Assembly: GCA_963723235.1 (NCBI GenBank)
Contig: CAVRPV010000017.1
Coordinates: 17,084 to 81,083 of the forward strand
Reading direction: 5' to 3'
DNA: 64,000 bases
Source: an uncultured delta proteobacterium
GTDB lineage: Bacteria; Desulfobacterota; WTBG01; CAIYCZ01; CAIRTM01
Shown here: positions 16,269 through 58,291 of the stretch, piece after piece
Numbering within the stretch: the stretch's first letter is position 1
Layout of the letters: every line of letters begins with the position of its first letter
Made by a program: the position numbers and the translations under genes
The notes under the pieces: model-generated
Told to the model about the DNA's origin: nothing
Seen by the model: only the letters and a program-made list of their open reading frames with translations
The model's database searches: none

Positions 16269-17202
16269 ATGGCTGCAAAGGACTATTACAAGGTTTTGGG
16301 TGTTGAAAAAACAGCGACTGTGGCTGAAATAAAAAAAGCCTATAAGGAACTGGCGTTCAAATACCATCCCGACAAAAACCCGGGAAACGCTAAAGCAGAA
16401 GACCGCTTTAAAGAAATCAGCGCAGCATATGCTGTTTTGAGCGACAAGAGTAAGCGCGCACAATATGATCAATTCGGCTCAAGCGGATTTCATCAACGCT
16501 ACAGCCAGGAGGACATCTTCAGGGGCGCGGACCTGAACGATATATTCAGGGAGATGGGATTCAGCAGCAACAACGATATATTCGGTCAGATTTTTCGGAG
16601 GCGGGCGCGGCCGCAGACAACAGACATACAGAATGGATGATATATTCGGTGGCAACAGCGGCGGATTCGCATCCGGCCCCAAGGCGGCCCGCGGTCAGGA
16701 CCTGAGCCTTGAGCTTACAATTGATTTCATGGACGCTTTCAACGGCTGTGAAAAAACCGTCGAATATGTCCATGGCGGCAAAAAACATGGCGTTAAGGTC
16801 AAAGTGCCGGCAGGCATAGCCTCGGGTCAAAAGCTGCGACTGGCCGGCAAGGGTGGGTCGGGTCAGGGTGGATCGGGCGACATGTTTTTTACCATCACAG
16901 TTGCCGCCCACCCCGTTTTCAAGCGCGAGGGCTATGATGTTATTATTGATCAGGAAATAAAAATAAGCGAAGCAGTGTTCGGAACCAGCCTTGAAGTGCC
17001 GACCCCGCACGGCAACCGCACAATCAAAATACCCGCAGGCATCCAGAACGGCACAAAACTGCGCTTAAAAGGAATGGGCATGCCCCATTTCGACAAAAGC
17101 GATCAGGGCCATGCCTATGTCCGGATCTCAGTTACAATCCCGAAACACCTGAGCGAGGCCCAGAAAAAACTCTTCAAGCAGCTCTCAGAAGAAGGCTGCT
17201 GA
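16269..17202 (+). pseudogene. cbpA: CbpA-type DnaJ-family co-chaperone (J-domain plus DnaJ C-terminal domains, no zinc finger), with an apparent +1 frameshift in a T5 run
   Basis: J-domain 'DYYKVLGV...YHPDKN'. Frame 3 ends '...[14 protein letters not shown]'. Frame 1 reads '[21 protein letters not shown]...' and then the DnaJ_C beta domains. The junction is at TTTTT 16591-16595. Span is 934 nt (3n+1). Confidence 0.85.
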
Positions 17203-17288: not shown

Positions 17289-17618
17289 ATGAACTACACA
17301 TCAAAAGCTTTGCTCGTGGTATCGTTGCTCCTGGTGGCGCTCACGACAGCTGCCTGTGAAAAAGAAGGCCGGGAAATTGACAAAACGCTGAACGCCTCAA
17401 AAGAAAAAATTTTGGCATTCACGACAGCTGCCTGCGCACCAAAAGACACCGCTGAAAAAATAGGCCGGGAGATTGACAACGCGGTTACCACCATAAAAAA
17501 AATAGCGGCATTCACGGAAGCAGCCCGCCAGAAAGAAGGCAGCGCTGAAAAAGCGGGGAAGTACATTGACAAAACGTTGAATTCGGCAAAAGAAACAATC
17601 AACGAAGCCACACGCTAG
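17289..17618 (+). CDS. Small lipoprotein with three ~31-aa internal repeats
   Basis: Signal peptide plus lipobox 'LTTAAC'. The repeats are 'TTAAC-EKEGREIDKTLNASKEKILAF', 'TTAACAPKDTAEKIGREIDNAVTTIKKIAAF' and 'TEAARQKEGSAEKAGKYIDKTLNSAKETINEA'. Confidence 0.7.
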   Translation: MNYTSKALLVVSLLLVALTTAACEKEGREIDKTLNASKEKILAFTTAACAPKDTAEKIGREIDNAVTTIKKIAAFTEAARQKEGSAEKAGKYIDKTLNSAKETINEATR

Positions 17619-17797
17619 AGCATTTATCTAAATACTATAGCCTGCGATACAACACCGTCCGTTCGCCCTGAGCCTGTCGAAGGGTGAACGGACAAGGTAT
17701 TTAATACTGAAACCCGTTCATGGTTCGACAAGCTCACCACGAACGGGTGAACATCTTCTTTTTAAAAAGGCTACAAAAAAAAGATAACTACGCTAGA
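17616..17797 (+). mobile_element. Miniature TIR element (MITE-like), copy A, at the left boundary of the accessory island
   Basis: It is the reverse complement of 27259-27438; about 165 of 180 positions are identical in a hand alignment. Termini are TAGAGCATTTATCT / AGATAA..GCT.. It starts on the TAG stop of the lipoprotein gene. Confidence 0.8.
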
Positions 17798-18035
17798 GCA
17801 AATTAATTTTGAGATGTCCGGTCTCGGATTGAAAAACGGAGGCGCCGATCGGCACGTGCCATCTCTCGCGCAGAAAACTTATTTACTTAATTAAGGGCGT
17901 CCCGCTGATGGCCTCAGTGCCCTTCCCTTCGGCAAAACAATTCAACTAATTCAACAACGTCCCCGTAACCTCCCCCGCAGTGTTCACGATTACAAACTGA
18001 AACAAATCAACGAGTTTCTTTGGGGTAGGGGCATT

Positions 18036-18336
18036 TCAGCTTTTGGATGCTTGGGCGTGCAGCTTCAGTCCCAGGGCGTGTACAACCTTGAGGATGGTAT
18101 CAAAGCCGGGGCTTCGATCACCTGAAAGGGCCTTGTACAGGCTTTCACGCGACAGGCCGGTATCACGGGGCTACCTGCGACATGCCGCGGCTGCGGGCAA
18201 TATCGCCCAACGCTTTCGCAATAAAGGCGGCATCGCCGTCGGCCTCTTCAATGCAGGCTTCGAGATAGGCGGCCATTTCTTCAGGCGTGCGAAGATGCTC
18301 TGCAACATCGTAACGGACTAGTTTTTGTTTTTTCAT
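18036..18336 (-). pseudogene. HTH antitoxin ('addiction module antidote' type), frameshifted
   Basis: 'MKKQKLVRYDVAEHLRTPEEMAAYLEACIEEADGDAAFIAKALGDIARSRGMSQVA' is followed, after a +1 shift, by 'RDTGLSRESLYKALSGDRSPGFDTILKVVHALGLKLHA'. The extra base is in the GGGG run at 18167-18170. Span is 301 nt. Confidence 0.75.
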
Positions 18337-18397
18337 CGATTCTTACAAGTTTGCTACCAAAGCAATGGAGCTTTCTTAATAATCACAAACTTAAGCG

Positions 18398-18654
18398 TTA
18401 AGTGTTATTACAAACCTCCATCAAGTGGCGCACCGTGACGCCTTTATCAAGCATGCGCGTCGTTATGCTGTCTGAGCACCCTGAATAGTGACGAGCTCAT
18501 AGACGTACCCCTTCAGAATCGTGCCCGACGATTGGGAATGCCGCTATAGCCGGACTGCTCGAAACGCATGGCCGATCTTTCTCGCGAAAGCTTTCTATGC
18601 CGCCAGAGCAGAAAGAGTACGAAAACTAGTTGTCGTGTCGAATTTGACGTACAT
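18398..18654 (-). pseudogene. Decayed RelE/ParE-superfamily toxin remnant, partner of the antitoxin at 18036-18336
   Basis: It reads 'MYVKFDTTTSFRTLSALAA*KAFARKIGHAFRAVRL*...SGTILKGYVYELVTIQ...' and, in another frame, '...DKGVTVRHLMEVCNNT*'. It has two in-frame stops and at least one frameshift. It sits where a toxin-first module would place its toxin. Confidence 0.35.
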
Positions 18655-19401
18655 TCGTCACTGATTGTGAGCCGAATTGGCTAAACACCTGTCAAGGTTA
18701 ATCTCGAAGAAATCCTGTACTGCTGTCAGCACTGTATTGTCGCCGGGTTTTCAAGTTTCTTCCCTGTAGCTTTTTAACCCCCATCGTTTCGTAGTTAGAT
18801 TTGATACCACCTTTCTTTGCTCGGCAAAGAAAGGTGATACCCCCAAGAAAGCCGCCCCGTGGCACCTTGGCGTCCGCCCAAGGTCGGGATTGCTCTCGCC
18901 GGGACACACGATCGCGGGAACGGCACGAACTCGCACATTCGGGCGCTCAGACAGCGTGTCGTTCGTATCCGCGCTCATGCACCTGTCCTCCGCAGTAGCC
19001 TGCTACGGAGGGTGGACCCGGCTCGGCTGCGCTCCGATGGGGTTTGAAACCCCTGAACCTTGGACTTTTAACCTTCTTGTGACTTTGGACCTTCGACTTT
19101 GGTTTTTGGTCTTCGGTCCTTGTTCCTCCCCCTACCACGATAACGCCAAGGCCTGTCAGCGCTGTTTTCATACCCACCACTTTCATCAATAGATTCACCC
19201 AACGCTTACCCCATAAACCTCTGTACTGGTTACAGTTTCCGTTTGCACATTGAAATAAATAATTATAAGATCATTTGAAATTAACAAGATTAAACCAAAA
19301 CCGCATTGAGGATAACACCGCAATGGCATAGGTTTTATAAGGGGCTTAGACGATAAATTTTAATGAGCGTATTTGGCAGAAATGGGCATGGGTGATTACA
19401 A

Positions 19402-19746
19402 ATGACAATCAATGAATTGACTGAAAAACTCAGGATGTTTGCCAAAGAGCGTGATTGGGAGCAGTTCCACTCGCCTAAAAATCTTTCTATGGCTCTCGCG
19501 GTTGAAACAGCTAAGCTCATGGAACACTTTCAATGGCTTACAAAAGACCAAAGCCTAAATCTTGAAAAGACAACATTAGAAAAGGTTAAACAAGAAATCG
19601 GCGATACTCCAGATTTATCTGCACGTCTTGCTGACCAACTTGGTATTGATCCTCTACAAGCAGCAGAAGAAAAATTGAAAATGAATGCCGCAAAATACCC
19701 GGTTGATAAGGCAAAGGGATCGGCTAAAAAATATACCGACTTGTAA
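19402..19746 (+). CDS. MazG-like all-alpha nucleoside triphosphate pyrophosphohydrolase (dCTPase-like)
   Basis: 114 aa with 'FAKERDWEQFHSPKNLSMALAVETAKLMEHFQW', 'EIGD', 'RLADQLGID' and 'KNAAKYP'. Confidence 0.8.
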   Translation: MTINELTEKLRMFAKERDWEQFHSPKNLSMALAVETAKLMEHFQWLTKDQSLNLEKTTLEKVKQEIGDTPDLSARLADQLGIDPLQAAEEKLKMNAAKYPVDKAKGSAKKYTDL

Positions 19747-19809: not shown

Positions 19810-21778
19810 GTGATTGTTTACTCTGCTACAAAAGAAAAATTTCAGAACGATATCATGACAAATGATATCGAAAATATCATTTTAGATGCTTTTAAAACCA
19901 CAACGGGCAGACGCACAATATCTTCAGAGATAATGTCATGGAAAAACTCGTTACCATGTATGGGGCGGATTTTACAAGACAATGCAATTCCGAAGGATAC
20001 AGGCGTTGCAATTGAATATCATATTCCGCAATCATCCAAACGCATCGATTTTATTTTGACAGGTAAAGATCATCAAAATAAAGAAGCTGCCGTACTCATA
20101 GAACTTAAACAATGGGACAAAGCCTACCTGACAGATAAAGATGCAATCGTAAGCACACGGTTCAAGCACGGCGAAGTAGAGACACCGCACCCCTCCTACC
20201 AAGTCTGGTCATATAAATGTCTTTTAGAAGATTTTAATCAGACTGTACAGGAAGAAAAAATCGGGCTCTTCCCTTGCGCATATCTTCATAATTATGACCC
20301 TGATGATGTTATTACAAACAAACGCTATAGCAAATATATTCAAAATGCCCCGATTTTTTTAAAAAAAGATGCCCTGAAGTTGCAGCGGTTTATAAAAGAG
20401 TACATCAAATATGGTGACCGCAATCAAATCATGTACCGGATTGAGCATGGCAGGATAAGACCATCAAAAAACCTTGCCGATCAGCTTGTATCAATGCTTC
20501 AGGGCAATCAAGAGTTTGTGATGATTGATGATCAAAAGGTTGTCTATGAAACTGCTCTTAAGCTTACAGGGAAGGCATCTACCACTAAAAAACAGGTATT
20601 GATTGTTGAAGGTGGCCCAGGGACCGGAAAATCTGTTATTGCAATTAACCTTCTTGTTGAACTAACAAAGCAAAAGCTGCTTGCACAATATGTTACGCGA
20701 AATTCTGCACCTCGCTTAGTTTATGAAGCGATGTTAGCAGGTACTTTAACAAGAACGAATATATCTAACATGTTTAAGAGTTCGGGTTCTTATCATGCCA
20801 TAGAAGATAATGTTTTTGATTATTTGATCGTTGATGAAGCGCATAGGCTTAATGAAAAATCAGGTATGTTTAATAACCTTGGTGAAAATCAAATCAAAGA
20901 AATAATCAAGTCAAGTAAATGCAGTATTTTTTTTCTTTGATGAAGACCAGCGGGTAACCCTTAAGAGATATTGGTAATAAAGAACAAATTCGCCAGTTTA
21001 CAAAAGAATCTAATGCGGATGTTTTGGAGTGTGGACTCGAATCTCAGTTTCGTTGTAATGGTTCAGACGGGTATCTTGCCTGGCTTGACAATACATTACA
21101 AATAAGAGAAACGGCGAATGAAAAACTTAGTACGGATTAATATGATTTTCGTATTATTGATAGTCCTTTGAAATTACATAGTTTGATCCGTGAAAAAAAT
21201 AGAGAAAACAATAAGGCACGTATCTGGTGGCGGGGTACTGTTGGAAGTGGGTTAGCAAAAAGAATCCGGTTCTTAAAGATATTGTTATTGGTGATTACAA
21301 GGCGACTTGGAATCTTGATAGCGACGGGCAGGTATGGATAATTAAGCCGGATTCAGTGAATGAAGTGGGCTGTATTCATACTTGCCAAGGGTTGGAAGTT
21401 GACTATATCGGAGTTATAGTAGGCCCGGATTTGATTGTGCGTAACAATGAAGTCATTACCCAGCCCCTTGAGCGTGCATCTTATGATAAGTCAGTTCATG
21501 GGTGGAAGAAAAGGATGAAAGAAAAACCCCATGAAACAAAGAAGATGCTCGATGATATTATTAAGAACACCTATCGCACACTTATGACCCGTGGGCAAAA
21601 GGGTTGTTATGTTTATTTTGTCGATCAAGAAACGCGGCAATATTTCGAAGCACGCCTTAAGTTAAATGCAGAGAGCATGGATGCTGTTTTGCAAGAAGCA
21701 TGTTGCAATCAACAGCCTTTTAGACAGCTACCAGTTGAAGAAATAAGGCCTTACGAGAATTGTGTGCCCTTGTGTTGA
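19810..21778 (+). pseudogene. DUF2075-type protein with a nuclease-like N-domain and a P-loop ATPase/helicase core, multiply disrupted
   Basis: N-domain 'AIEYHIPQSSKRIDFILTG...AVLIELKQW'. Walker A is 'EGGPGTGKSVIA' and Walker B is 'LIVDEAHRL'. Motifs then continue across frames: 'IFF|DEDQRVTLK|DIGNKEQ...ESQFRCNGSDGYLAWLDNTL...STD*YDFRIIDSP...KARI|VAGYCWKW...CQGLEVDYIGVIVGPD...TRGQKGCYVYF'. Frame changes are at ~20927-20938 (T8 run), ~20963-20967 and ~21224-21227. An in-frame TAA is at 21138-21140. Confidence 0.8.
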
Positions 21779-22236
21779 CTTTAGAGCAGCAGCCGGACAT
21801 TTTAGTGATGAGCAACAGGTAACATCATGGATCAATGGTCAGGACGAAACGGAGATATCAGGAAACGACTTGGGTTGAGTTGCCGGATGTTTTTCGACCT
21901 CAACGAGATTTGTTTGTTGCCCAAGTTGTCGGTGAATCCATGAACCGTCGCATACCAAACGGCTCATGGTGTCTGTTTCGTTTGAATCCTGCAGGTTCTC
22001 GCCAAGGGAAGATAGTTTTGGTTCAGCATCGGGATATTGCAGATACTGATACAGGTGGGCATTACACCGTCAAGCTGTATGAAAGCAGAAAACAGGAAAA
22101 GGTGGACGGTAGTTGGCTCCATTCATCGATTGTTTTGCGACCTGATACTACAGCATCGGGGTATGAACCAATCATATTAAGCGAGGATCAGTGCGATTAT
22201 TTAAGGGTAATCGCAGAATTTATTGCAGTTTTGTGA
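21774..22236 (+). pseudogene. LexA/S24-type serine peptidase domain. It apparently continues the DUF2075 reading frame as a C-terminal fusion, and is frameshifted.
   Basis: One extra base at 21773 joins '...PYENCVPL' to 'VDFRAAAGHFSDEQQVTSW...', which contains a LexA-like AAG cleavage-site motif. After another shift (21835-21876) it reads 'WVELPDVF...FVAQVVGESMNRRIPNGSWCLFR...GKIVLV...YTVKLY', with the catalytic Ser in 'GESM' and Lys in 'VKL'. Confidence 0.7.
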
Positions 22237-22277
22237 GCGGCTGTGATTTTTGGTGGAATTTTGGGTAATTCGAAATG

Positions 22278-22297
22278 CGGGGACACCATACTAATTT
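22278..22297 (+). repeat. 20-nt direct repeat CGGGGACACCATACTAATTT, the left flank of the EEP/PD-(D/E)xK gene pair
   Basis: 19 of 20 positions are identical to 23755-23774. Confidence 0.7.
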
Positions 22298-22436
22298 TAA
22301 CTGTCCTTCGGTTCAAGAATGGGTATGCCCCCACTGATTTCCACCATTGTGCAGGCGCGGTGAAATATCAAAATTAACAGGCATATCAAATGCGGGGAAT
22401 AAAGGGGCGCAGCCCCCTATTGCCGAAGGATTGCCA

Positions 22437-23193
22437 GTGAGAATCGTTTCTTGGAACTGCAACGGTGCTTTTCGGAAGAAATTTTCGCAGCTTGCAGCAA
22501 TTGACGCTGACGTCTACATCATTCAAGAATGTGAAAACCCTCAATTGCTAGTCAACAAGAGTAAGGAGTTTCTCGAATTCTCCTCGAATCACCTTTGGCA
22601 TGGCGAAAACAAGAACAAAGGTCTCGCAGTTTTTGCGAAACCTGATCTTGGGCTTAAAAAAGTGACGCTTAACCATGATTGGCATGGTAGATCTCTCAAG
22701 TGGTTTCTTCCTTTTTACCTTTCTAAAAGCAATCAAATATTTAAGTTCTTGGGGCTTTGGAATCATAGTGCTGGCGCAAAGGCGTTTGCCTATATTGGTC
22801 AGTCCTGGCTATTCTTCCAGAACAACAGAGAATTCTTTAGGAATGCCATTATCGCTGGCGATTTCAACAGCAACAAGATATGGGATTCGTGGGATAGATG
22901 GTGGAATCACACAGACTATGTAAATGAACTCTCAAATCTTGGTCTATGCAGTCTTTATCATTTCATTTATGGCCAAGAACAGGGGACGGAAACTCAACCA
23001 ACTTTCCTTTTGCAGAGAAACGAAAGAGAAGAAATACCACATCGACTACATTTTTACCGATGCGGAAAAAGCACAGCGGACTACAGAGTTCAAGATCCAT
23101 GATTTCAAGGACTGGATAGAACTAAGTGACCATGTGCCAATCGAATGGAATTTTAGTGAGCGGTCTGAAGGGAAGCTGAATGGACAACGATGA
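22437..23193 (+). pseudogene. Endonuclease/exonuclease/phosphatase (EEP) family protein, with an apparent +1 frameshift near 23010-23040
   Basis: GTG start at 22437 with AAGGA 8 nt upstream. Motifs are 'RIVSWNCNGAFR', 'DVYIIQECE' and 'IIAGDFNS'. In frame 1 it continues 'KEKKYHIDYIF...ELSDHVPIEW'. Span is 757 nt (3n+1). Confidence 0.8.
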
Positions 23194-23705
23194 AGATTAT
23201 GTACTTGATAAATGCAAAGGAAGCATCTAGAAAAAAATCACTCGGTGAACTGGGTGAGCTCTTTGCGATAAAGACTCTCGTTGACAATGAATTCGACAAG
23301 ATCAGAAACCTAAATGACGACCATAGGAATGAGGCCTTTGCAGACATAGTTTGTGAAAAGAATGGCGTGAGGTATGTGGTCAGCGTAAAGGCAAGAAACA
23401 AATTTCAACTGGACGGCAAACTGAATAGTCGGTACAACTTGGGAACCAATGCGTATGAAAAGGCGCGATCAGCGGAGTACAAACATGGTGGAATTGCTCA
23501 TTGGATGGCGATCCAGTTCGACCTTCATGAATATTCAGTCTATTTTGGGTCGTTGAGCGAGTTGAATTCGGCCAAAGCGATACCGATTGACAAGTGTGAA
23601 GCTGGTATCATTGGCAAAAAACTAGTTGACAGGAAAAGGCACTATTTTGATTTTGGATACTACAAGAACAAAATGAGGAGAAATCTAATATCAAAATCAA
23701 CTTGA
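23190..23705 (+). CDS. Small PD-(D/E)xK-like (restriction-endonuclease fold) protein
   Basis: 171 aa with 'GELGELFAIKTLVDNEFDKIRNLN...FADIVCEKNGVRYVVSVKARN', which resembles the G-E...D...(E/S)-x-K pattern of YraN/Hjc-like nucleases. Its ATG overlaps the EEP stop (ATGA). Confidence 0.55.
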   Translation: MKIMYLINAKEASRKKSLGELGELFAIKTLVDNEFDKIRNLNDDHRNEAFADIVCEKNGVRYVVSVKARNKFQLDGKLNSRYNLGTNAYEKARSAEYKHGGIAHWMAIQFDLHEYSVYFGSLSELNSAKAIPIDKCEAGIIGKKLVDRKRHYFDFGYYKNKMRRNLISKST

Positions 23706-23754
23706 CTCAGGCCGTTCGTCCTCCGTAGGTAACTTTTCAATGGAGGGGGAAATC

Positions 23755-23774
23755 CGGGGACACCATACTGATTT
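23755..23774 (+). repeat. 20-nt direct repeat CGGGGACACCATACTGATTT, the right flank of the EEP/PD-(D/E)xK gene pair
   Basis: 19 of 20 positions are identical to 22278-22297. Confidence 0.7.
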
Positions 23775-23786
23775 ATCCAAATCTTA

Positions 23787-23900
23787 CCGGGGTCGGACCT
23801 TGCCCGGCGGTGTTAAGCTGTTGAATCTGCTGATGTGTTCATTGCCGCACGGCACGTTTTTAGTGCTTAGAAGCCCTTTTTCAGTATCAAAACCCGCGCT
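23787..23900 (+). repeat. Island repeat family T, copy 1 (CCGGGGTCGGACCTTGCCCGGCGGTGTTAAGCTGTTGAATCTGCTGATG...)
   Basis: It is near-identical over about 110 nt to 24781-24890 and shares its first ~65 nt with 25829-25895. Confidence 0.8.
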
Positions 23901-23946: not shown

Positions 23947-24348
23947 TCAGTGCGGAAGGGTTTGTAAACCGCAGTATTTTTCGATCGGGATAAAGTCCTT
24001 ATCGTTGTGGAGAAGCGCCACATCGTGCTCAATGGCCGTGGCAGCGATCATGCAGTCAACGGGTGTTCGTATCGTGATGCCCCTGCGGCGTAGATCGCGA
24101 TATATCTCCGCTGACCGCACATACACCGCATAGTCCATGGGAAGAAAAATCAGGTTGGCAAGCATGTCGCGCGTTTGCCGAAATTCGAAATCATCCCTGA
24201 TACCCTGAAGCAGTTCAGTGAGAATCACGCCGCACAGGCAGATGTCCTCCCTGTCCTTAATGAGCTTTTCAAGGGTCCCTACATGCTGCCCGGCAGGGTG
24301 TGGCGAAAAAAAATCTATCCAGACCGTGGTATCAACCAGAACCATCAT
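23947..24348 (-). CDS. vapC: PIN-domain toxin VapC
   Basis: 'MVLVDTTVWIDFF', 'TELLQG', 'VDCMIAATA' and 'LLHNDKDF' supply the PIN acidic residues. It overlaps the vapB stop by 4 nt. Confidence 0.92.
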   Translation of the reverse strand: MMVLVDTTVWIDFFSPHPAGQHVGTLEKLIKDREDICLCGVILTELLQGIRDDFEFRQTRDMLANLIFLPMDYAVYVRSAEIYRDLRRRGITIRTPVDCMIAATAIEHDVALLHNDKDFIPIEKYCGLQTLPH

Positions 24349-24780: not shown

Positions 24781-24890
24781 CTGGGTCGGACCTTGCCCGG
24801 CGGTGTTAAGCTTTGAATCTGTGAGTGTTCATTGCCGCATGGCATGTTTTTAGTGCTTAGAAGCCCCTTTTCAGTATCAAAATCCGCGCT
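24781..24890 (+). repeat. Island repeat family T, copy 2
   Basis: 'CTGGGTCGGACCTTGCCCGGCGGTGTTAAGCTTTGAATCTGTGAGTGTTCATTGCCGCATGGCATGTTTTTAGTGCTTAGAAGCCCC...' is in the same orientation as copy 1. Confidence 0.8.
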
Positions 24891-25819: not shown

Positions 25820-25828
25820 TGTGTCTGA

Positions 25829-25895
25829 CCGGGGTCGGACCTTGCCCGGCGGTGTTACGCTGTTGAATCGGTTGATGCGTACATTGCCGCACGCA
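25829..25895 (+). repeat. Island repeat family T, copy 3 (5' part only)
   Basis: 'CCGGGGTCGGACCTTGCCCGGCGGTGTTACGCTGTTGAATCGGTTGATGCGTACATTGCCGCAC' begins 10 nt after the higA stop. Confidence 0.75.
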
Positions 25896-26172: not shown

Positions 26173-26802
26173 TTACCAGAAAACAGGTTTTTCAATCCAG
26201 CCGTTTTCTGTGCTGCGAAGCTTTGCCGGGAATTGAGCTTTTTGCAATAGTATGTTCGGAAGGGTTTTAGCTTTATCTGCGGCTGCACGAATTTCCACAG
26301 CCGCCCCTCTTGTTGGATCGTTAGCCGGAACGTAAACAATAACCTCACGGTCCGGCCTGTTTCGCTTCAGCTCCCTGATAGCAGGAACAAGATCAGAATC
26401 ACCACTTACCACTACAAGCCTTTCACAGCTATCGTTGAAAGCATCCGCAAGCATATGCACAGCGATATTAACGTCTGTTCTTTTTTCCTCCTGCATTCTG
26501 AAAAACCTGCTGCCGATATGCCTGCATGCCGGCACAAGGCATTTGACTGATTTTGTTTTAAATTTGCCGAGGTAAATGTGGACCAGGGGAAGTGTTGCAA
26601 GGGCTAAGAGGTATGTTTCCTGATTGCTCCGGTGAGAGCCATCGATGAGCGCCGTAAAATATTTTATTGCCTGAATGTCATCATCCTGCCTTAAAAGCGT
26701 AAAAAAGCGCCCCAGGTTCAACCATTTATAAGGGGTTCCTTTGACGGCGCCATAATACAGATTAAACCCATCGATATAAATAATGCTCCGCTTTTTTTTC
26801 AT
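26173..26802 (-). CDS. NYN-domain (LabA-like) protein
   Basis: 209 aa with 'IIYIDGFNLYYG', 'RTDVNIAVHMLADA' and 'LVVVSGDSDLVPAIREL'. Confidence 0.8.
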   Translation of the reverse strand: MKKKRSIIYIDGFNLYYGAVKGTPYKWLNLGRFFTLLRQDDDIQAIKYFTALIDGSHRSNQETYLLALATLPLVHIYLGKFKTKSVKCLVPACRHIGSRFFRMQEEKRTDVNIAVHMLADAFNDSCERLVVVSGDSDLVPAIRELKRNRPDREVIVYVPANDPTRGAAVEIRAAADKAKTLPNILLQKAQFPAKLRSTENGWIEKPVFW

Positions 26803-26896: not shown

Positions 26897-27256
26897 TTAC
26901 AATCGTTTGTCAACAGCATTCTTTTCACAGGCCTGCGCGTGGTTATGGCTGCCAATGCGACGATGGTCATTTTGTATTGGGACATAGGTCGGATGATTCT
27001 TGACCGTCAGAAAAACGAAGGCTGGGGAGCCAGAGTTATTGATCGTCTTTCGGCTGACTTGCGTGAAACTTTTCCCGATATGCAAGGGCTTTCACCGCGA
27101 AATCTTAAATACATGCGTGCCTTTGCAGCAGCCTGGCCGTCAAAAGAAATTGTGCAAGAGCCTCTTGCACAATTTCCCTGGTATCACCAGATAGCACTGC
27201 TTGAAAAATGCCGCACCCCCGAAGAGAGGCTGTGGGAAGTTACAGGACGTTGTTGA
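26897..27256 (+). pseudogene. DUF1016/YhcG-family (PDDEXK-type) N-terminal fragment, truncated
   Basis: 'AANATMVILYWDIGRMILDRQKNEGWGARVIDRLSADLRETFPDMQGLSPRNLKYMRAF...PWYHQIALLEK..TPEERLW'. There is no credible start. It ends after ~105 aa, 2 nt before MITE copy B; the family is usually more than 300 aa. Confidence 0.65.
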
Positions 27257-27258
27257 AT

Positions 27259-27438
27259 TAGAGCATTTATCTTTTTTCTGTAGCCTTTTTAAAAAGAAGA
27301 TGTTCACCCGTTCGTGGTGAGCTTGTCGAACCATGGACGGATTGCAGCGTCAAATACGTTGTCCGTTAACCCTTCGCCAGGCTCAGGGCGAACGGACGGT
27401 GTTGTATCGCAGGCTATAGTATTTAGATACATGCTCTA
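27259..27438 (-). mobile_element. Miniature TIR element (MITE-like), copy B, at the right boundary of the accessory island
   Basis: It is the reverse complement of copy A. Termini are TAGAGCATTTATCT ... AGATACATGCTCTA (14-bp TIR with 1 mismatch). Confidence 0.8.
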
Positions 27439-31548: not shown

Positions 31549-33810
31549 TCAGGCCCTCTTTTCCTGATGTGCGGCTACAAGAATCTGCCCCAGCGCAATC
31601 CCGCCATCGTTAGGCGGAATCAGCTGGTGAGAATATACCTCAAACCCGTCATTCAGCAATGCCTTTCTGGTATGGCTGAGAAGCAGCGAGTTTTGAAACA
31701 CGCCGCCTGAAAGCACAACCCTTTTGTGCCCGGCCGCGCGGGCCACGGAGCGGATCATCTCCACAAGGGTTGCGTGAAAACGCCGGGCAACACTGCGGGC
31801 GTCTTTTTCCTGCACAATCAGGGCAATCGCGGGCCGCCAGTCAATCACTGACACCCCGCCCGTGTTGCGAAGTTCGAAGGGATACGGTGTACCCAGCTCC
31901 CCATCGGCCGCGTGTTCCAGCATCATCGCAGCCTGGCCCTCAAAGGTCGAACGGCGGCATATACCCGATATCGCCGAGACAGCGTCAAAAAGCCGGCCTG
32001 CACTTGTCGTGCGCACTGTATTCATGCCCGTCGCAAGCATCGACGTCATGACCTTCAACTCATCCGGCGTAAACATCTCCTGAAGGCATGCGCTCTCAGC
32101 CGCGCCCTGAGTTTCTGTAAGAACCCCGAGGGCGGAGCGCCGCGGCTCGCGCACAGCAGCATCTGCGCCGGCAAGCCCGAAAGGCAGCAAATGCGCTACG
32201 CGCTTACAGGATGCGTAGGAACCGGCCAGGAACTCGCCGCCCCAGACCGTTCCGTCCGTGCCATAGCCTGTTCCATCCCATGTCACGGCAAGGACATCAC
32301 CTTCAAGATGGTTTTCAAACATGCATGCGGCCATATGAGCATGGTGATGCTGCACCTCGACCAGCGGAATATTGGCAGCCTGCGCGAACGAATGCGCATA
32401 GCGATGTGAAAAATAGGACGGATGCATATCAGTTGCAACCATGTCCGGGGCCCAGGAAAAAAGTTTCTTGAAATCGGCGATGACGCGCTGAAAGGCCTCA
32501 AACGCTTCACCGGTTTCCAGATCGCCGATGTGCTGACTCATGACGATAAAATCATGCTGGGAAATGGCGATCGCATTTTTCAGATCACCTCCGGTTGCAA
32601 GCATGCGGGGAAGACGGCGGCCTGCTGGAAAGGGAAGCGGGGCGTATCCGCGCGCACGGCGCAGCATAATGATCTGACCGTCAACCACGCGTGCAATGGA
32701 GTCATCCGCATGCCGCACAATCGGGCGGTCATGCACAAGAAACGCGTCTGCGAATGCAAGACGTTTGACAGCTTCGTTTTCATCCGTGCACATGGGTTCA
32801 TCGGCAAGGTTGCCGCTGGTTGCCACCACCGGGTTGCCGAGCTTTGAGAGCATCAGAAAATGAAGCGGCGTATAAGGAAGCATGCATCCAAGGCAGGGAT
32901 TTCCCGGCGCAATCACGTCAGGGAGGTTAGACTCCGGGCGCTTCTTTAAAAGAACAATCGGCGCCTCCGGGCCTGAGAGCAAAACCTCCTCGGCATCATC
33001 CACGAAGCAATGTTTTTTCACAGCTGCAATGTCAGGAAACATCAGCGCAAAGGGCTTGTACTCGCGCGTCTTCAGGCTGCGCAGGCGCTCAAGCGCTGCG
33101 ATGTTGAAGGCGTCCGCCATGATATGAAAACCGCCCAGGCCTTTTACCGCTACAATCTCTCCGGCGCGAATATCTGCAACCGCACGCTCAAGGGGATCCG
33201 CACCGTCAAAAGAAGCACCGCCCGGAAGCAGATATCTCAGCTGCGGACCGCAGCAAGGGCATGCCAGAGGCTGTGCGTGAAAACGCCTGTCCTGAGGATT
33301 TTCATATTCCTCCTTACAGGCTGGACAAAGGGGGAAACCCTGCATGGACGTGTTGGGCCGGTCATAGGGTATATCCGTCATGATGGTAAAACGCGGTCCG
33401 CACTGCGTACAGTTGGTAAACGGGTAGGAAAAACGCCGCTCGGATGGCTCCTGTATTTCCGCAAGGCACTCCGGACACGTCGCAATATCAGACAGGAGCG
33501 TAAACATCTTCTCACCGCCGGCATCGCTGTGGCATATCTGAAAATCAGCAAAACCAGCAAGCTGGTGGAAGGAAAATTCAAAGGAGAAGATACGGGCGGC
33601 TGCGGGTGCCTCGGCGCGCAGTCGTTTTAAAAAGGCCTCAAGCGTTTGGCGGTCTGCTTCGGCTTCCACGCAAACGCCGGCGGAGTTGTTCAAAACCCGG
33701 CCGCATATCCCAAGCTCAACAGCCAGCCGATACACAAAAGGTCGAAACCCAACCCCCTGCACAACGCCTCTAATCTGACAGACAAGCCGGGTTTTTTCGT
33801 CCTTAATCAT
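31549..33810 (-). CDS. hypF: Carbamoyltransferase HypF
   Basis: 753 aa with an acylphosphatase N-domain ('VRGVVQGVGFRPFV'), two CxxC-CxxC zinc fingers, and YrdC-like and Kae1-like domains. Confidence 0.95.
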   Translation of the reverse strand: MIKDEKTRLVCQIRGVVQGVGFRPFVYRLAVELGICGRVLNNSAGVCVEAEADRQTLEAFLKRLRAEAPAAARIFSFEFSFHQLAGFADFQICHSDAGGEKMFTLLSDIATCPECLAEIQEPSERRFSYPFTNCTQCGPRFTIMTDIPYDRPNTSMQGFPLCPACKEEYENPQDRRFHAQPLACPCCGPQLRYLLPGGASFDGADPLERAVADIRAGEIVAVKGLGGFHIMADAFNIAALERLRSLKTREYKPFALMFPDIAAVKKHCFVDDAEEVLLSGPEAPIVLLKKRPESNLPDVIAPGNPCLGCMLPYTPLHFLMLSKLGNPVVATSGNLADEPMCTDENEAVKRLAFADAFLVHDRPIVRHADDSIARVVDGQIIMLRRARGYAPLPFPAGRRLPRMLATGGDLKNAIAISQHDFIVMSQHIGDLETGEAFEAFQRVIADFKKLFSWAPDMVATDMHPSYFSHRYAHSFAQAANIPLVEVQHHHAHMAACMFENHLEGDVLAVTWDGTGYGTDGTVWGGEFLAGSYASCKRVAHLLPFGLAGADAAVREPRRSALGVLTETQGAAESACLQEMFTPDELKVMTSMLATGMNTVRTTSAGRLFDAVSAISGICRRSTFEGQAAMMLEHAADGELGTPYPFELRNTGGVSVIDWRPAIALIVQEKDARSVARRFHATLVEMIRSVARAAGHKRVVLSGGVFQNSLLLSHTRKALLNDGFEVYSHQLIPPNDGGIALGQILVAAHQEKRA

Positions 33811-54703: not shown

Positions 54704-57700
54704 TTAACCACGACTTTGCAACTGCTTCAATATGGCACGGACCTCTGCCGGCATGTCAGCATCAGGGGCAACCCTGACATGCAGTTTCAATTCGGGCGTA
54801 AACTTGAAACGCCCCGGATCAGCGCTGACAATTCGCAGGATATGATCAAGCTGCTCGGAGGCATCATCGTGAAAGCTTAACACCAGGCAGCCCTTATAGT
54901 AATCAATAGAGGTGATCAATAGAGCGCGCAGCACAATGCGCAGGCGTGCGACCTCCAGCAGCAACTCGACCTGCTCCGGCAGAACACCGTAGCGGTCGCG
55001 CATTTCCTCTTCAATATCGCGGGATTCATCATCAGTAAGCGTTGACGCTATGCGGCGATACAGCACCAGGCGCTGATTCACGTCCGGAACATAATCCTTC
55101 GGAATATAGGCCTGCAGCTGCAGGTTGACTGCCGGGTCGATTTTGGGGCGCGCCTGCTCGCCTTTAAACTCGGCGATGGTCTCGGCAAGCAGCTCCAGAT
55201 ACATATCCATGCCGACCGAGGCCATGTGGCCCGACTGCGCATGCCCCAGTATATTGCCGGCCCCCCGGATCTGAAGATCACGGGTCGCCAGCCGGTAGCC
55301 GGAACCAAGCTCGCTGAATTCACTGAGCGCTTCAAGGCGCTTGGCAGCCTCCCGGCTGACAATGCTTGTGCCCGGAACCAGCATGCAGGCATAGGCACGA
55401 ACTTTGCCGCGGCCAACGCGCCCGCGCAGCTGATACATCTGGGCCAGTCCCAGACGATGCGCATTATTGATGATGATTGTATTCGCGCTGGGGAAATCAA
55501 GGCCGGATTCGATAATCGTGGTGCACAACAGCACATTGATTTCCCCGCGCACAAAACGCAGCATGACATCCTCAAGCTCATGCTCGTTCATCTGACCGTG
55601 AGCGATTCCCAGCTGCATTTCCGGCACCAGACGGCGCAAATACACTGCCATTGATTCAATTGATCGCACGCGGTCATGCACAAAGAATACCTGCCCGCCG
55701 CGCTTAAGTTCGCGCATGATCGCCTCCCGGATAAGCGCTTCATCGAAATGGGCGATAACGGTGCGGATCGACATGCGGTCCTGCGGCGGTGTTTCAATGG
55801 TTGAAAAATCGCGCACACCGAACAGCGACAGCTGCAGGGTGCGCGGAATCGGGGTTGCGGTCAGGGTCAACACATCAACCATGCGTTTGATCTGCTTGAT
55901 TTTTTCCTTCTGCTTAACGCCGAAACGATGCTCCTCATCAATTACCAGCAGGCCCAGGTCCTTGAAAACAACATCCCGGCTGACCAGCCTGTGCGTACCG
56001 ATGATAATATCAATGGTGCCCTGCCCCAACTCAGCAATAATCCGGCGCTGATCCTTCGGGCTGCGGAACCGGCTGATAATATCAACCCGCACGGGATAGG
56101 GAGCAAGCCGGGCCCGAAAGGTCTGATAGTGCTGCTGGGCAAGTATTGTGGTCGGCACGAACACGGCTGTCTGCTTACCCTGCATGGCCGCGCGAAAAGC
56201 GGCCCGCAGGGCCACTTCAGTTTTTCCGTAGCCGACATCACCGCAGACAAGCCGGTCCATCGGACGCTCGGAGGTCATGTCCTGCATGACATCCTGAATG
56301 GCGGCAGCCTGATCGGGGGTTTCCTCAAACGGAAACGCCGCCTCAAACTCGCGGTAATAATGGTCAGGCGGGGTAAATGCATGTCCGCGATACACCTTGC
56401 GCGCGGAATAAAGTTCAATCAGCTCGTGGGCGATTTTCTCGACCGACTCCTTGACCTTGCGCTTGGTGCTCTGCCAGCCCATGCCGCCGAGCCTGTCGAG
56501 CTTCGGGGGAGAATCCTCGGCACATTCGTATTTATTGATAAGCGTGATGCGGTCAACCGGCAAAAAAAGACGGTCGCCGCCCAGGTATTCCAGGCGCAGA
56601 TAATCAGCCTGCACCCCGCCGGCATTCAGCGTTTCAAGCCCGCGATATATCCCGATGCCGTTATCACGATGCACGATATAGTCACCGGGCAAAAGATCAC
56701 TGAAATCAGACAGCGCGGTTCCGGAGCGCAGGCGCGCACTGCGAGTGCGATGTTTCTTCTCGCCGAAAATCTCCTGTTCGGTCAACAGCACGAAGCGACC
56801 CGCATCGGTGCGAAATCCCCGCGCAATTGCACCCGTGAAAATTTCAACTGAGCCCGGCAAGGGTCGCTCAAGCAGCGCAGCGCAGGACGTATCAGCTATA
56901 AAATCGGCCCTCAGGCCGTAATCAGCAAACAAACCGCACAGGCGCTCGCACTGGCTTTTGGTGTGACAGGCCACAAGCACGCGATATCCGTCCTCAAGCC
57001 AGTTCTCCATGCGCGCTGCCAGCGCTGTCAGCACCCCGTCACTGCTGTCTACGGCCAGCAGTTCCTGCCTGATATCATCATTTGCCTGCGTAGCGAAGAG
57101 AACCTGCGGCAGCGTACGCCGGGCTGTCCAGCTTTCAAAACAAAGCGTCTGTGTGCATATCTGCGCATCAGACGGGTCTATAAAGGGCAGAAACATCTCC
57201 GTTGGTTCGGATGCGGCGCGGCGCTCTTCGCAGGTCGCCTGAAAACCGGAGAGAACATCCTGCTCAAGGGCGGCGATCTGCCGGGCGGATTCATCCGGAT
57301 CGCACCAGATCGCCAGGGTATCGGACGAAAGATAATCAATCAGCGACGCGGTGTGCGCATACACCAGTGACAGGCAGTAATCTGATCCTGCCGGAAGAAA
57401 CCCGCTGTGCAGATTTTCAACAAACGCCTGCCTCCGTGAACCTTCAAACGCCTGGGGATTTTCGGCAACACGCGCGGACAGGCCCGCCTGAACCTCGGGG
57501 CTGAGAATCAGCTCGCGCACCGGTGTAATATGCACGCAGGCAAGGTCGGTGTGCGAGCGCTGGGTGCGTGGATCAAACAGGCGCATTGATTCAACCGTAT
57601 CGCCAAACAGATCAATGCGCACAGGGCAGACGTAGCCCGGCGGAAAGATATCAAGAATTTCGCCGCGCACGCTTATATCGCCGCGATCCTCGGCCAGATT

Positions 57701-58291
57701 GACGCGCGTGTAACCGCAGGCAATCAGTGTGCGCAGCAGGGCGTCGCGGTCAAGCATGTCGCCGACCGCAATATCACAGCAGGCGTCAATCAAAATCTCC
57801 GGCGGCACAACACGCTGCTGCAAAGCCCGGCTGCAGGTGACCGTAATCAGGGGTCTGGTGGAAGCGCATAAACGATAGAGCGCCCACAATCGCCGGGCGC
57901 TCACGTCGCAGTGGATCAGCACCTGCTCATAGGGACGGGTATCGGGCGGCGGGAAAAAACACACATCACTTTCGGGGCCATCATCCTGATTGCGAAAAAA
58001 CAGCAGTTCGGAATACAGTTCAAGCGCATCATCGCGCGTGGGAGCGATAATGCAGAGCGGGCGCTTGAGTGCGTCAAACAGCAGGGACGCTGCCAGGGCG
58101 CCGGCTGAGCCCCGGATGCCGGAGGCATACAGCAACGGCGCGCTCTGACTCAGCGCGTCCAGCAGCGCGCGGCCTGATGTTTTTTCACTGAAAAATGCGG
58201 AACCGGCTATGGTCATACGGCGTGGAGAGTACTCGGCATTGGGAAAACTGATTGGATGCGGATCGACACGCAAGCGCACCGGCCTTTTCAA
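54704..58291 (-). CDS. mfd: Transcription-repair coupling factor
   Basis: 1195-aa ORF with 'GDVGYGKTEVA', 'DEEHRFGV', a CarD-like/RID region and a TRCF C-terminal domain. The true start may be the ATG at 58216. Confidence 0.95.
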   Translation of the reverse strand: MKRPVRLRVDPHPISFPNAEYSPRRMTIAGSAFFSEKTSGRALLDALSQSAPLLYASGIRGSAGALAASLLFDALKRPLCIIAPTRDDALELYSELLFFRNQDDGPESDVCFFPPPDTRPYEQVLIHCDVSARRLWALYRLCASTRPLITVTCSRALQQRVVPPEILIDACCDIAVGDMLDRDALLRTLIACGYTRVNLAEDRGDISVRGEILDIFPPGYVCPVRIDLFGDTVESMRLFDPRTQRSHTDLACVHITPVRELILSPEVQAGLSARVAENPQAFEGSRRQAFVENLHSGFLPAGSDYCLSLVYAHTASLIDYLSSDTLAIWCDPDESARQIAALEQDVLSGFQATCEERRAASEPTEMFLPFIDPSDAQICTQTLCFESWTARRTLPQVLFATQANDDIRQELLAVDSSDGVLTALAARMENWLEDGYRVLVACHTKSQCERLCGLFADYGLRADFIADTSCAALLERPLPGSVEIFTGAIARGFRTDAGRFVLLTEQEIFGEKKHRTRSARLRSGTALSDFSDLLPGDYIVHRDNGIGIYRGLETLNAGGVQADYLRLEYLGGDRLFLPVDRITLINKYECAEDSPPKLDRLGGMGWQSTKRKVKESVEKIAHELIELYSARKVYRGHAFTPPDHYYREFEAAFPFEETPDQAAAIQDVMQDMTSERPMDRLVCGDVGYGKTEVALRAAFRAAMQGKQTAVFVPTTILAQQHYQTFRARLAPYPVRVDIISRFRSPKDQRRIIAELGQGTIDIIIGTHRLVSRDVVFKDLGLLVIDEEHRFGVKQKEKIKQIKRMVDVLTLTATPIPRTLQLSLFGVRDFSTIETPPQDRMSIRTVIAHFDEALIREAIMRELKRGGQVFFVHDRVRSIESMAVYLRRLVPEMQLGIAHGQMNEHELEDVMLRFVRGEINVLLCTTIIESGLDFPSANTIIINNAHRLGLAQMYQLRGRVGRGKVRAYACMLVPGTSIVSREAAKRLEALSEFSELGSGYRLATRDLQIRGAGNILGHAQSGHMASVGMDMYLELLAETIAEFKGEQARPKIDPAVNLQLQAYIPKDYVPDVNQRLVLYRRIASTLTDDESRDIEEEMRDRYGVLPEQVELLLEVARLRIVLRALLITSIDYYKGCLVLSFHDDASEQLDHILRIVSADPGRFKFTPELKLHVRVAPDADMPAEVRAILKQLQSRG

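Follow-up and report, generated by a model that had tools for sequence, protein, structure and literature searches.

Why would a nuclease-ATPase carry at its C terminus the self-cleaving domain of LexA? The question is raised by a gene on a 64,000-nucleotide stretch of DNA (the window) from an uncultured delta proteobacterium (contig CAVRPV010000017.1). Self-cleaving S24 domains are textbook sensors of DNA damage in bacteria and cleave their own Ala-Gly or Cys-Gly bond once filaments of RecA on single-stranded DNA (RecA-ssDNA, or RecA*) stabilise the cleavable conformation. To our knowledge, they have so far been known to control only repressors and one polymerase subunit. In the window, positions 19810-22236 of the forward strand combine a PD-(D/E)xK-like motif, an ATPase and an S24 domain. 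The window copy is a pseudogene; its architecture, and the spread of that architecture, proved solid among the intact relatives, for which we infer a function below.

Positions 19810-22236 hold a single gene that is disrupted by five frame changes and one TAA, which we placed by three-frame translation and by tblastn of an intact homologue (P0002). The homologue aligned with the window in five collinear segments (frames 3/2/1/2/3) that cover residues 1-811 at 51-78% identity. Joining the frames gave a product of 807 amino acids, in which the PD-(D/E)xK-like motif is followed by a DUF2075/Schlafen (SLFN)-type superfamily 1 (SF1) ATPase and then by the S24 domain. In Pfam, the model PF09848 (SLFN-g3_helicase, formerly DUF2075) matched three open reading frame (ORF) pieces, namely 19810-20940 (1.2e-27, profile positions 1-121), 21024-21140 (4.3e-6, 154-186) and 21227-21778 (1e-39, 220-354). 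Jointly these span the model end to end, and with both the Walker A and the Walker B motif present they identify the ATPase as a member of this family, while PF00717 (Peptidase_S24) matched 21835-22236 (1.7e-6). Four of the lesions cluster in 20927-21227, no uninterrupted reading frame is left and, as read, the window copy is a dead, non-functional pseudogene. An earlier note on this stretch had given these coordinates and motifs and the same lesions (five frame changes and a TAA at 21138-40), four of them within 300 nucleotides, and had proposed that deletion of base 21773 fuses the end of the ATPase to the segment with the AAG motif. Translation and tblastn led us to the same positions, and ...ENCVPL indeed joins VDFRAAAG.

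The ATPase and the S24 domain form one protein in the intact relatives. At least 120 intact proteins of 785-846 amino acids, among them those of Geobacter sulfurreducens and Geomesophilobacter sediminis, are 66-72% identical to the repaired protein over 98-100% of its length, and most of the intact homologues listed were already annotated with both PF09848 and PF00717. Species-representative genomes contain at least 595 relatives, in Desulfobacterota, Burkholderiales, Bacteroidales, Elusimicrobia, Verrucomicrobia, candidate-phyla bacteria and others. In all tail-bearing loci the ATPase and the S24 part lie in one ORF, with no stop and restart between them. We rejected the possibility of a second gene for the S24 part further downstream, as the intact relatives are single ORFs, and the earlier note, which had taken the two parts for one gene, was borne out: relatives with a stop, a separate start and no AAG motif, which it had named as evidence to the contrary, were not what we found. 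Judged by these reading frames, the ATPase-S24 fusion is real and common. We also rejected the idea that the family is mainly borne by phages or plasmids, as the search returned four phage records and few close plasmid matches.

The tail of the intact relatives has the features of a self-cleaving S24 domain. The linker between the ATPase core and the S24 domain is flexible and variable and comprises 40-60 residues; it is followed by a conserved LPFRRL...PFxNCVPLYDLKxAAGxFS segment and then by the S24 core. A profile built from diverse tails matched the crystal structures of LexA (1.3e-7) and UmuD (8e-5) in the PDB, which places the tail in the S24 family. In the alignment with LexA the AAG motif falls on Ala84-Gly85, the serine of GESM on Ser119 and the lysine of TVK on Lys156. 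Among 93 sequences, Gly699, Ser701 and Lys746 never vary, and conservation of Ala664 and Gly666 is 90% or higher. The full LexA/CI signature that the earlier note had recognised (Ala-Gly, the serine of GxSM and the lysine) is thus conserved among these sequences and in register with LexA, and in the window the codons of both members of the Ser/Lys dyad are present after correction of the frames. Tails from Bacteroidales and Elusimicrobia have AAC-G in place of AAG; the cleavage site of UmuD is Cys24-Gly25. One clade, with members in Acidobacteria, Kiritimatiellia, Lentisphaerae and uncultured bacteria (loci L022, L023, L025 and L026), has AA-Asp for AA-Gly and keeps the serine and the lysine. 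In LexA the corresponding change, Gly85Asp (lexA3), blocks cleavage. In one further locus (L018) both the tail and its dyad are degenerate. An invariant Ser/Lys dyad together with a near-invariant (A/C)-Gly site is hard to explain otherwise, which argues for real self-cleavage of the tail at this bond in the intact relatives.

The same tail was also found on restriction enzymes. An exhaustive HMMER search of 1.84 billion representatives with the window S24 piece gave 1417 matches, of which 713 had E<=1e-10. In nearly all of the best 150 of these 713 the domain is C-terminal, in proteins of 89-1878 amino acids. A Pfam census of the best 150 counted the SLFN helicase in 19, ResIII in 10, the HsdR C-terminal domain in 5, DUF3427 in 4, MZB in 3, Type ISP and GIY-YIG in 2 each, and XhoI, RE_endonuc, MmeI/Eco57I and AlbA_2 in 1 each. 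Helix-turn-helix (HTH) domains were rare in this set, with 4 members for each of two overlapping HTH models. Individual pairs of tail and cargo were confirmed by Pfam scans and PADLOC. They include a Type II restriction endonuclease (REase; P0224), a Type III Res C-terminus (P0134), a Type IV DUF3427 enzyme (P0229), an MmeI-like enzyme (P0183), a DEAD-MZB-REase protein (P0269) and two GIY-YIG-DUF2075 proteins (P0177 and P0219). An XhoI-type REase-S24 gene (locus L084) lies directly 3' of its N6-methylase. Full-length HsdR proteins with the tail (869-944 amino acids) are numerous (P0305 and P0328 are HsdR-S24 examples), and the majority of HsdR proteins are without it. The motif [LIV][YF][DS][LI]K-x-AA(G)/AAC(G)-x-F[SG] is common to all tail-bearing cargo types. 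The window tail has more in common with the tails of HsdR (61% identity) and Type III Res (58%) than with those of the orthologous Bacteroidales DUF2075 proteins (40-44%), and so the tail has moved between cargo proteins. Restriction enzymes of Types I, II, IIG/ISP, III and IV include members that end in this tail subfamily, a mobile C-terminal module.

Gain and loss of the tail were also seen within the DUF2075 family. Among 85 core sequences, 57 have the tail, 27 end just past the ATPase at 615-640 amino acids (one of these is cut by the contig end) and one, from locus L018, is degenerate. A neighbour-joining tree built from the cores implies about seven gains or losses of the tail, and one tail-less protein has a core that is 88% identical to that of a tailed relative. 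The tail of P0121 is the nearest to that of the window (74%) and its core is more distant (E 2.7e-121), whereas P0139 has a closer core (9.4e-221) and a more distant tail (56%). This contrast hints that tails may have been exchanged even among lineages of the same enzyme family.

The ATPase core comprises residues 260-604 of the intact protein, and an intact homologue (P0117, from Geobacter sulfurreducens, CP010430.1, within 4470158-4488560) matched PF09848 over positions 1-354 with 2e-106. An AlphaFold2 model made with a diverse alignment had a mean predicted local distance difference test (pLDDT) score of 84.3 and a predicted template modelling (pTM) score of 0.68. This was an improvement on an earlier prediction from 46 close homologues, which had a pLDDT of 53.8 and gave generic helicases in the fold search. 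The best fold matches of the improved model were the SF1B helicases SLFN11, RecD2, RecD and Dna2, together with SLFN14. SLFN11 was at the top (2e-10), and disorder was limited to residues 619-636 of the linker and 662-675 of the loop with the cleavage site. The structure prediction that the earlier note had proposed thus gave a core like that of SLFN11, RecD2 and Dna2 and a disordered site loop. A full-length profile had no match to PDB sequences at 0.01, and LexA was reached by the tail profile only. The N-terminal part (residues 1 to about 250) had no Pfam match, and the whole-chain fold search returned helicases only. Glu69, Asp80, Glu98 and Lys100 of this part are invariant in an alignment of 46 homologues, and beta strands are modelled at 65-70, 79-86 and 92-100, where they would be expected for PD-(D/E)xK. 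We refer to it as PD-(D/E)xK-like, a nuclease signature read from the motif only. NCBIfam had no model for the enzyme, the MazG-like protein encoded upstream of it, or the neighbours.

Of 83 loci, 72 have a gene for a MazG-like protein directly 5' of that for the DUF2075 enzyme, whether or not the enzyme has the tail. Because it is kept in this place, we regard the MazG-like protein and the enzyme of about 800 amino acids as a two-gene module. The partner may act on a nucleotide pool or on a signal that is tied to the target choice of the enzyme. PADLOC had no model for the MazG-like partner. In the window, the MazG-like gene reads DTPDLSARLAD at about 19610-19630, where the closest homologue has DTQIYLARLAD; the difference is probably due to two indels, +1 and -1, that cancel each other out over five codons and disrupt a conserved hydrophobic helix. 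The gene on the other side varies among relatives: in the window it belongs to the endonuclease/exonuclease/phosphatase (EEP) family, in Geobacter its product is a PLD-helicase-DUF3427 enzyme, and a BsuBI/PstI-type REase was seen in other loci. The EEP-family gene is for this reason not a conserved partner. A change of frame separates it from its C-terminal SDHVPIEW, which is read from the overlapping ORF 22924-23193.

Features of the disrupted gene and its neighbours, in window coordinates
Feature	Position	Strand	Evidence or remark
MazG-like nucleotide pyrophosphohydrolase gene	19402..19746	+	Pfam PF12643, 7.5e-12; full length
Pseudogene: PD-(D/E)xK-like nuclease / DUF2075 (SLFN-type SF1) ATPase / S24 tail	19810..22236	+	Pfam, translation, tblastn, homologues
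PD-(D/E)xK-like motif	20047..20109	+	Asp80 20047-49, Glu98 20101-03, Lys100 20107-09; within RIDFILTG...LIELKQW
Walker A GGPGTGKS	20611..20634	+	read from sequence; invariant in homologue alignment A1
Walker B LIVDEAH	20824..20844	+	read from sequence; invariant in homologue alignment A1
Frameshift 1	20927..20934	+	+1 shift in T8 run, frame 1 to frame 2
Frameshift 2	20963..20967	+	frame 2 to frame 0, outside homopolymer
In-frame TAA stop	21138..21140	+	homologues have Asp/Glu/Asn at same position
Frameshift 3	21224..21227	+	frame 0 to frame 2
Frameshift 4	21773	+	one surplus base between ...ENCVPL and VDFRAAAG
Predicted scissile Ala-Gly	21792..21797	+	within RAAAGHFS; aligns to LexA Ala84-Gly85; AAG spans 21789-21797
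Frameshift 5	21866..21871	+	frame 0 to frame 1; falls within 21835-21876, simplest reading a surplus T before TGG (Trp)
S24 catalytic core, unbroken	21871..22236	+	Ser of GESM 21937-21939; Lys of TVK 22072-22074; PF00717
EEP-family gene	22347..23193	+	Pfam PF03372, 8e-6; frameshifted
PIN-domain gene	23947..24348	-	
NYN-domain gene	26173..26802	-	
DUF1016 (YhcG-like) gene	26939..27256	+	N-terminal fragment only

As to what the tail does, we tentatively propose that its cleavage is an off-switch that responds to DNA damage (RecA*), a built-in form of restriction alleviation. In intact relatives, the tail would cut its own chain at the (A/C)-Gly bond by means of the Ser/Lys dyad, and the reaction would be stimulated, as in LexA, CI and UmuD, by the RecA-ssDNA filaments that form on DNA damage. 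The cut would detach the dimerising tail and leave an enzyme that ends in ...K-x-A-A-COOH. Such an exposed end could, like the latent ClpX signals of LexA fragments, lead to inactivation or degradation of the enzyme, and the damaged chromosome, rich in single strands and under-modified, would be spared from the cell's own nuclease. In LexA, cleavage is known to part the cargo from the dimerising domain and to expose latent ClpX signals (PMC10584840). During DNA damage, unmodified sites and single-stranded intermediates arise on the chromosome of the host, and the need to silence restriction at such times is documented (PMC4231737). An off-switch is favoured because the same tail is found on constitutive restriction enzymes, which must act at once on incoming DNA. 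A long, variable and disordered linker joins the tail to unrelated folds, which would suit a mechanism independent of the cargo, such as loss of dimerisation or exposure of the ...AA-COOH end. A safety device also fits better than a nuclease lock because the tail is often lost and close tail-less relatives persist. With similar reserve, it is possible that these proteins form an unrecognised class, in which a mobile LexA-type tail links restriction enzymes, Nhi-like enzymes and other helicase-nucleases directly and post-translationally to RecA-ssDNA and turns them off (or on) with transcription unchanged.

Several points weigh against this proposal. Cleavage, RecA dependence and degradation are all steps that we infer for every member, and IrvR, an S24 protein, cleaves without RecA (PMC7101444). 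The tails of the AA-Asp clade may be non-cleavable or cut elsewhere. The AA-COOH end is inherited from the LexA-type site and so cannot separate the two directions of a switch. The DUF2075 family is without a methylase partner, and for it the logic of restriction alleviation is borrowed from the other cargo. DNA-damage-activated defence also has a precedent in AbpAB, which is triggered by DNA damage or by the single-stranded DNA-binding protein (SSB) of a phage (PMC10732053). In the view of the earlier note, the nuclease-helicase is held inactive or tethered by the tail until RecA*-triggered cleavage, on damage or phage replication, frees it, much as UmuD becomes UmuD'. The conserved site and dyad would serve such an activation equally well, and the cleavage product would resemble the natural tail-less relatives of 615-640 amino acids, which are presumably active. 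In addition, Nhi-type enzymes target phage replication intermediates (Millman et al. preprint, 10.1101/2022.05.11.491447). However, a lock that opens on damage would delay first-line restriction, and the tail sits on an ordinary Type II REase beside its methylase. A specific inhibitory interface is also a poor fit to a long, variable and disordered linker to unrelated folds, and frequent loss of the tail would leave unlocked nucleases. The tail on constitutive restriction enzymes and the tail-less cores at 88% identity thus turned us from the earlier view to the off-switch, and we regard activation as rather unlikely. If cleavage is real, inactivation is its probable result and is favoured over activation.

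Many nucleases act as dimers, and the tail could instead be mainly a structural domain for dimerisation or for docking to RecA filaments, with cleavage that is slow, constitutive or lost and has no regulatory role. The C-terminal domains of LexA and UmuD are dimerisation modules (PMC10584840), and the AA-Asp at the site of one clade and the degenerate dyad of L018 would be at home in such a scaffold. A scaffold would not, however, need an invariant Ser/Lys pair and an Ala/Cys-Gly site that is at least 90% conserved across unrelated cargo, and we consider this explanation improbable. It is most improbable that the enzyme's own RecA-fold motor on single-stranded DNA serves as the co-protease in cis. 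As to the window copy itself, the gene might be intact in the organism and the frame changes might be assembly or sequencing errors in a low-GC (guanine plus cytosine), possibly low-coverage stretch. One indel does sit in a T8 run, the MazG-like, EEP-family and split dnaJ-like neighbours carry indels as well, and an exact 44-mer from the gene was absent from metagenome contigs, which leaves no second copy for comparison. On the other side, four of the five indels lie outside long homopolymers and the TAA is of the substitution type. Flanking ORFs of 2-3.6 kb are unbroken (1195 amino acids at 54704-58291 and 753 amino acids at 31549-33810), where the indel density of the island (about 2 per kb by lesion count) would predict several. 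Because these long flanking genes are unbroken, we favour real decay of a horizontally acquired island and consider sequencing error distinctly unlikely.

Judging from these lesions, the gene and much of the island of about 9.7 kb around it are decaying. The island is a low-GC stretch (37-49% GC against about 55% in the flanks), with a drop in GC at about 19000. An imperfect direct repeat of 28 nucleotides (TAGAGCATTTATCT...TAGCCT; 17616-17643 and 27259-27286, 82% identical) brackets the low-GC stretch, and its two copies possibly mark where the island ends. No integrase gene, tRNA or tmRNA gene, or Rfam family was found in the window. The region 17700-19400, which adjoins the island and is about 1.7 kb long and fairly GC-rich, is without a convincing ORF, tRNA gene or above-chance Rfam match, and a permissive Rfam scan of 17500-19500 gave one chance-level match only. 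Ahead of the GC drop lies a dnaJ/cbpA-like gene (16269-17202) that is split in two. The ORF for the J domain (16269-16640) and that for DnaJ_C (16633-17202) overlap by 8 bases, and this is either a frameshifted gene or a natural two-gene arrangement. The ORF 17289-17618 contains three tandem copies of a 93-96-nucleotide unit (72-79% identical) and would encode a small protein that is repetitive and starts like a signal peptide. Between genes, an element of about 110 nucleotides occurs three times (23782-23900, 24783-24890 and 25824-25893; 91-100% identical), and its spacing of about 1 kb looks cassette-like. A 26-nucleotide piece, GAAATNCGGGGACACCATACTNATTT, is present at 22272-22297, after the S24 gene, and at 23749-23774, after the ORF 23190-23705. 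Locus L002 likewise has a DUF1016_N fragment close to its homologous module. The surroundings, with toxin-antitoxin genes, restriction-type enzymes and a PIN-domain gene, would suit a defence island.

The building blocks are already known: the S24 module for self-cleavage, the ATPase of the DUF2075/Schlafen type and the nuclease-helicase layout of Nhi. Apparently new are the domain combination, the pairing with a MazG-like gene and, most notably, the presence of the same kind of tail throughout the main classes of restriction enzymes. In the literature searched, the coverage of which is incomplete, we found no prior description of a DUF2075-S24 or restriction-enzyme-S24 architecture. In one source database a member bears the label 'DUF2075 family protein/SOS-response transcriptional repressor LexA', and the domain pair thus appears to have been visible in annotation and not studied. 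If the proposal is true, it would provide a direct, transcription-independent link from the SOS signal to restriction or anti-phage nucleases and a concrete mechanism of restriction alleviation beyond that of EcoKI and ClpXP. It would also offer protein engineering a portable, damage-triggered module for self-destruction or release.

Among known proteins, those of Schlafen group III (SLFN11 and SLFN14) share PF09848 with the window family, and the top match by structure is SLFN11, which works at replication forks that have been damaged. Sequence identity to them is about 11%, the PD-(D/E)xK-like N-terminus of the window family stands in place of the Schlafen RNase core, and the eukaryotic Schlafens are without the S24 tail. 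Nhi and Nhi-like enzymes have the same order of an N-terminal nuclease and a DUF2075 SF1 ATPase, whereas their description in the preprint has neither an S24 tail nor a MazG-like partner (10.1101/2022.05.11.491447). The PADLOC models for Nhi and AbiO matched the ATPase part only, and weakly (about 1e-9 to 1e-12). For Nhi the match was 9e-12 and covered about 150 of 470 positions. Despite the similar architecture, we rejected membership in Nhi on this partial and weak match; the best PADLOC match was a candidate system, PDC-S41 (3.7e-18, partial).

With LexA, lambda CI and UmuD (MEROPS family S24) the window family shares a homologous C-terminal domain, a flexible cleavage-site loop, a lysine as the general base and an Ala/Cys-Gly site about 35 residues before the serine of GxSM. 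The cargo differs, as it is a nuclease-ATPase of about 660 amino acids, or a restriction enzyme in relatives, and not an HTH repressor or a polymerase subunit. The window-type tail, for which cleavage is predicted, also has an insertion around the lysine strand (HRDIxDxDTGGHYTVK...DGxWxH) that LexA is without. According to one paper, the characterised members of the LexA-like superfamily are all RecA-coprotease-dependent; it describes them as transcription regulators (PMC7101444). A parallel in function is the alleviation of EcoKI restriction by ClpXP degradation of HsdR, which likewise silences a DNA-cutting motor when damage yields unmodified or abnormal host DNA (PMC4231737), and HsdR proteins that bear the window-type tail exist. 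For EcoKI, however, a long-lived state of translocation serves as the signal and no degron is established, whereas in the window family the proposed signal would be a built-in self-cleavage that is stimulated by RecA*.

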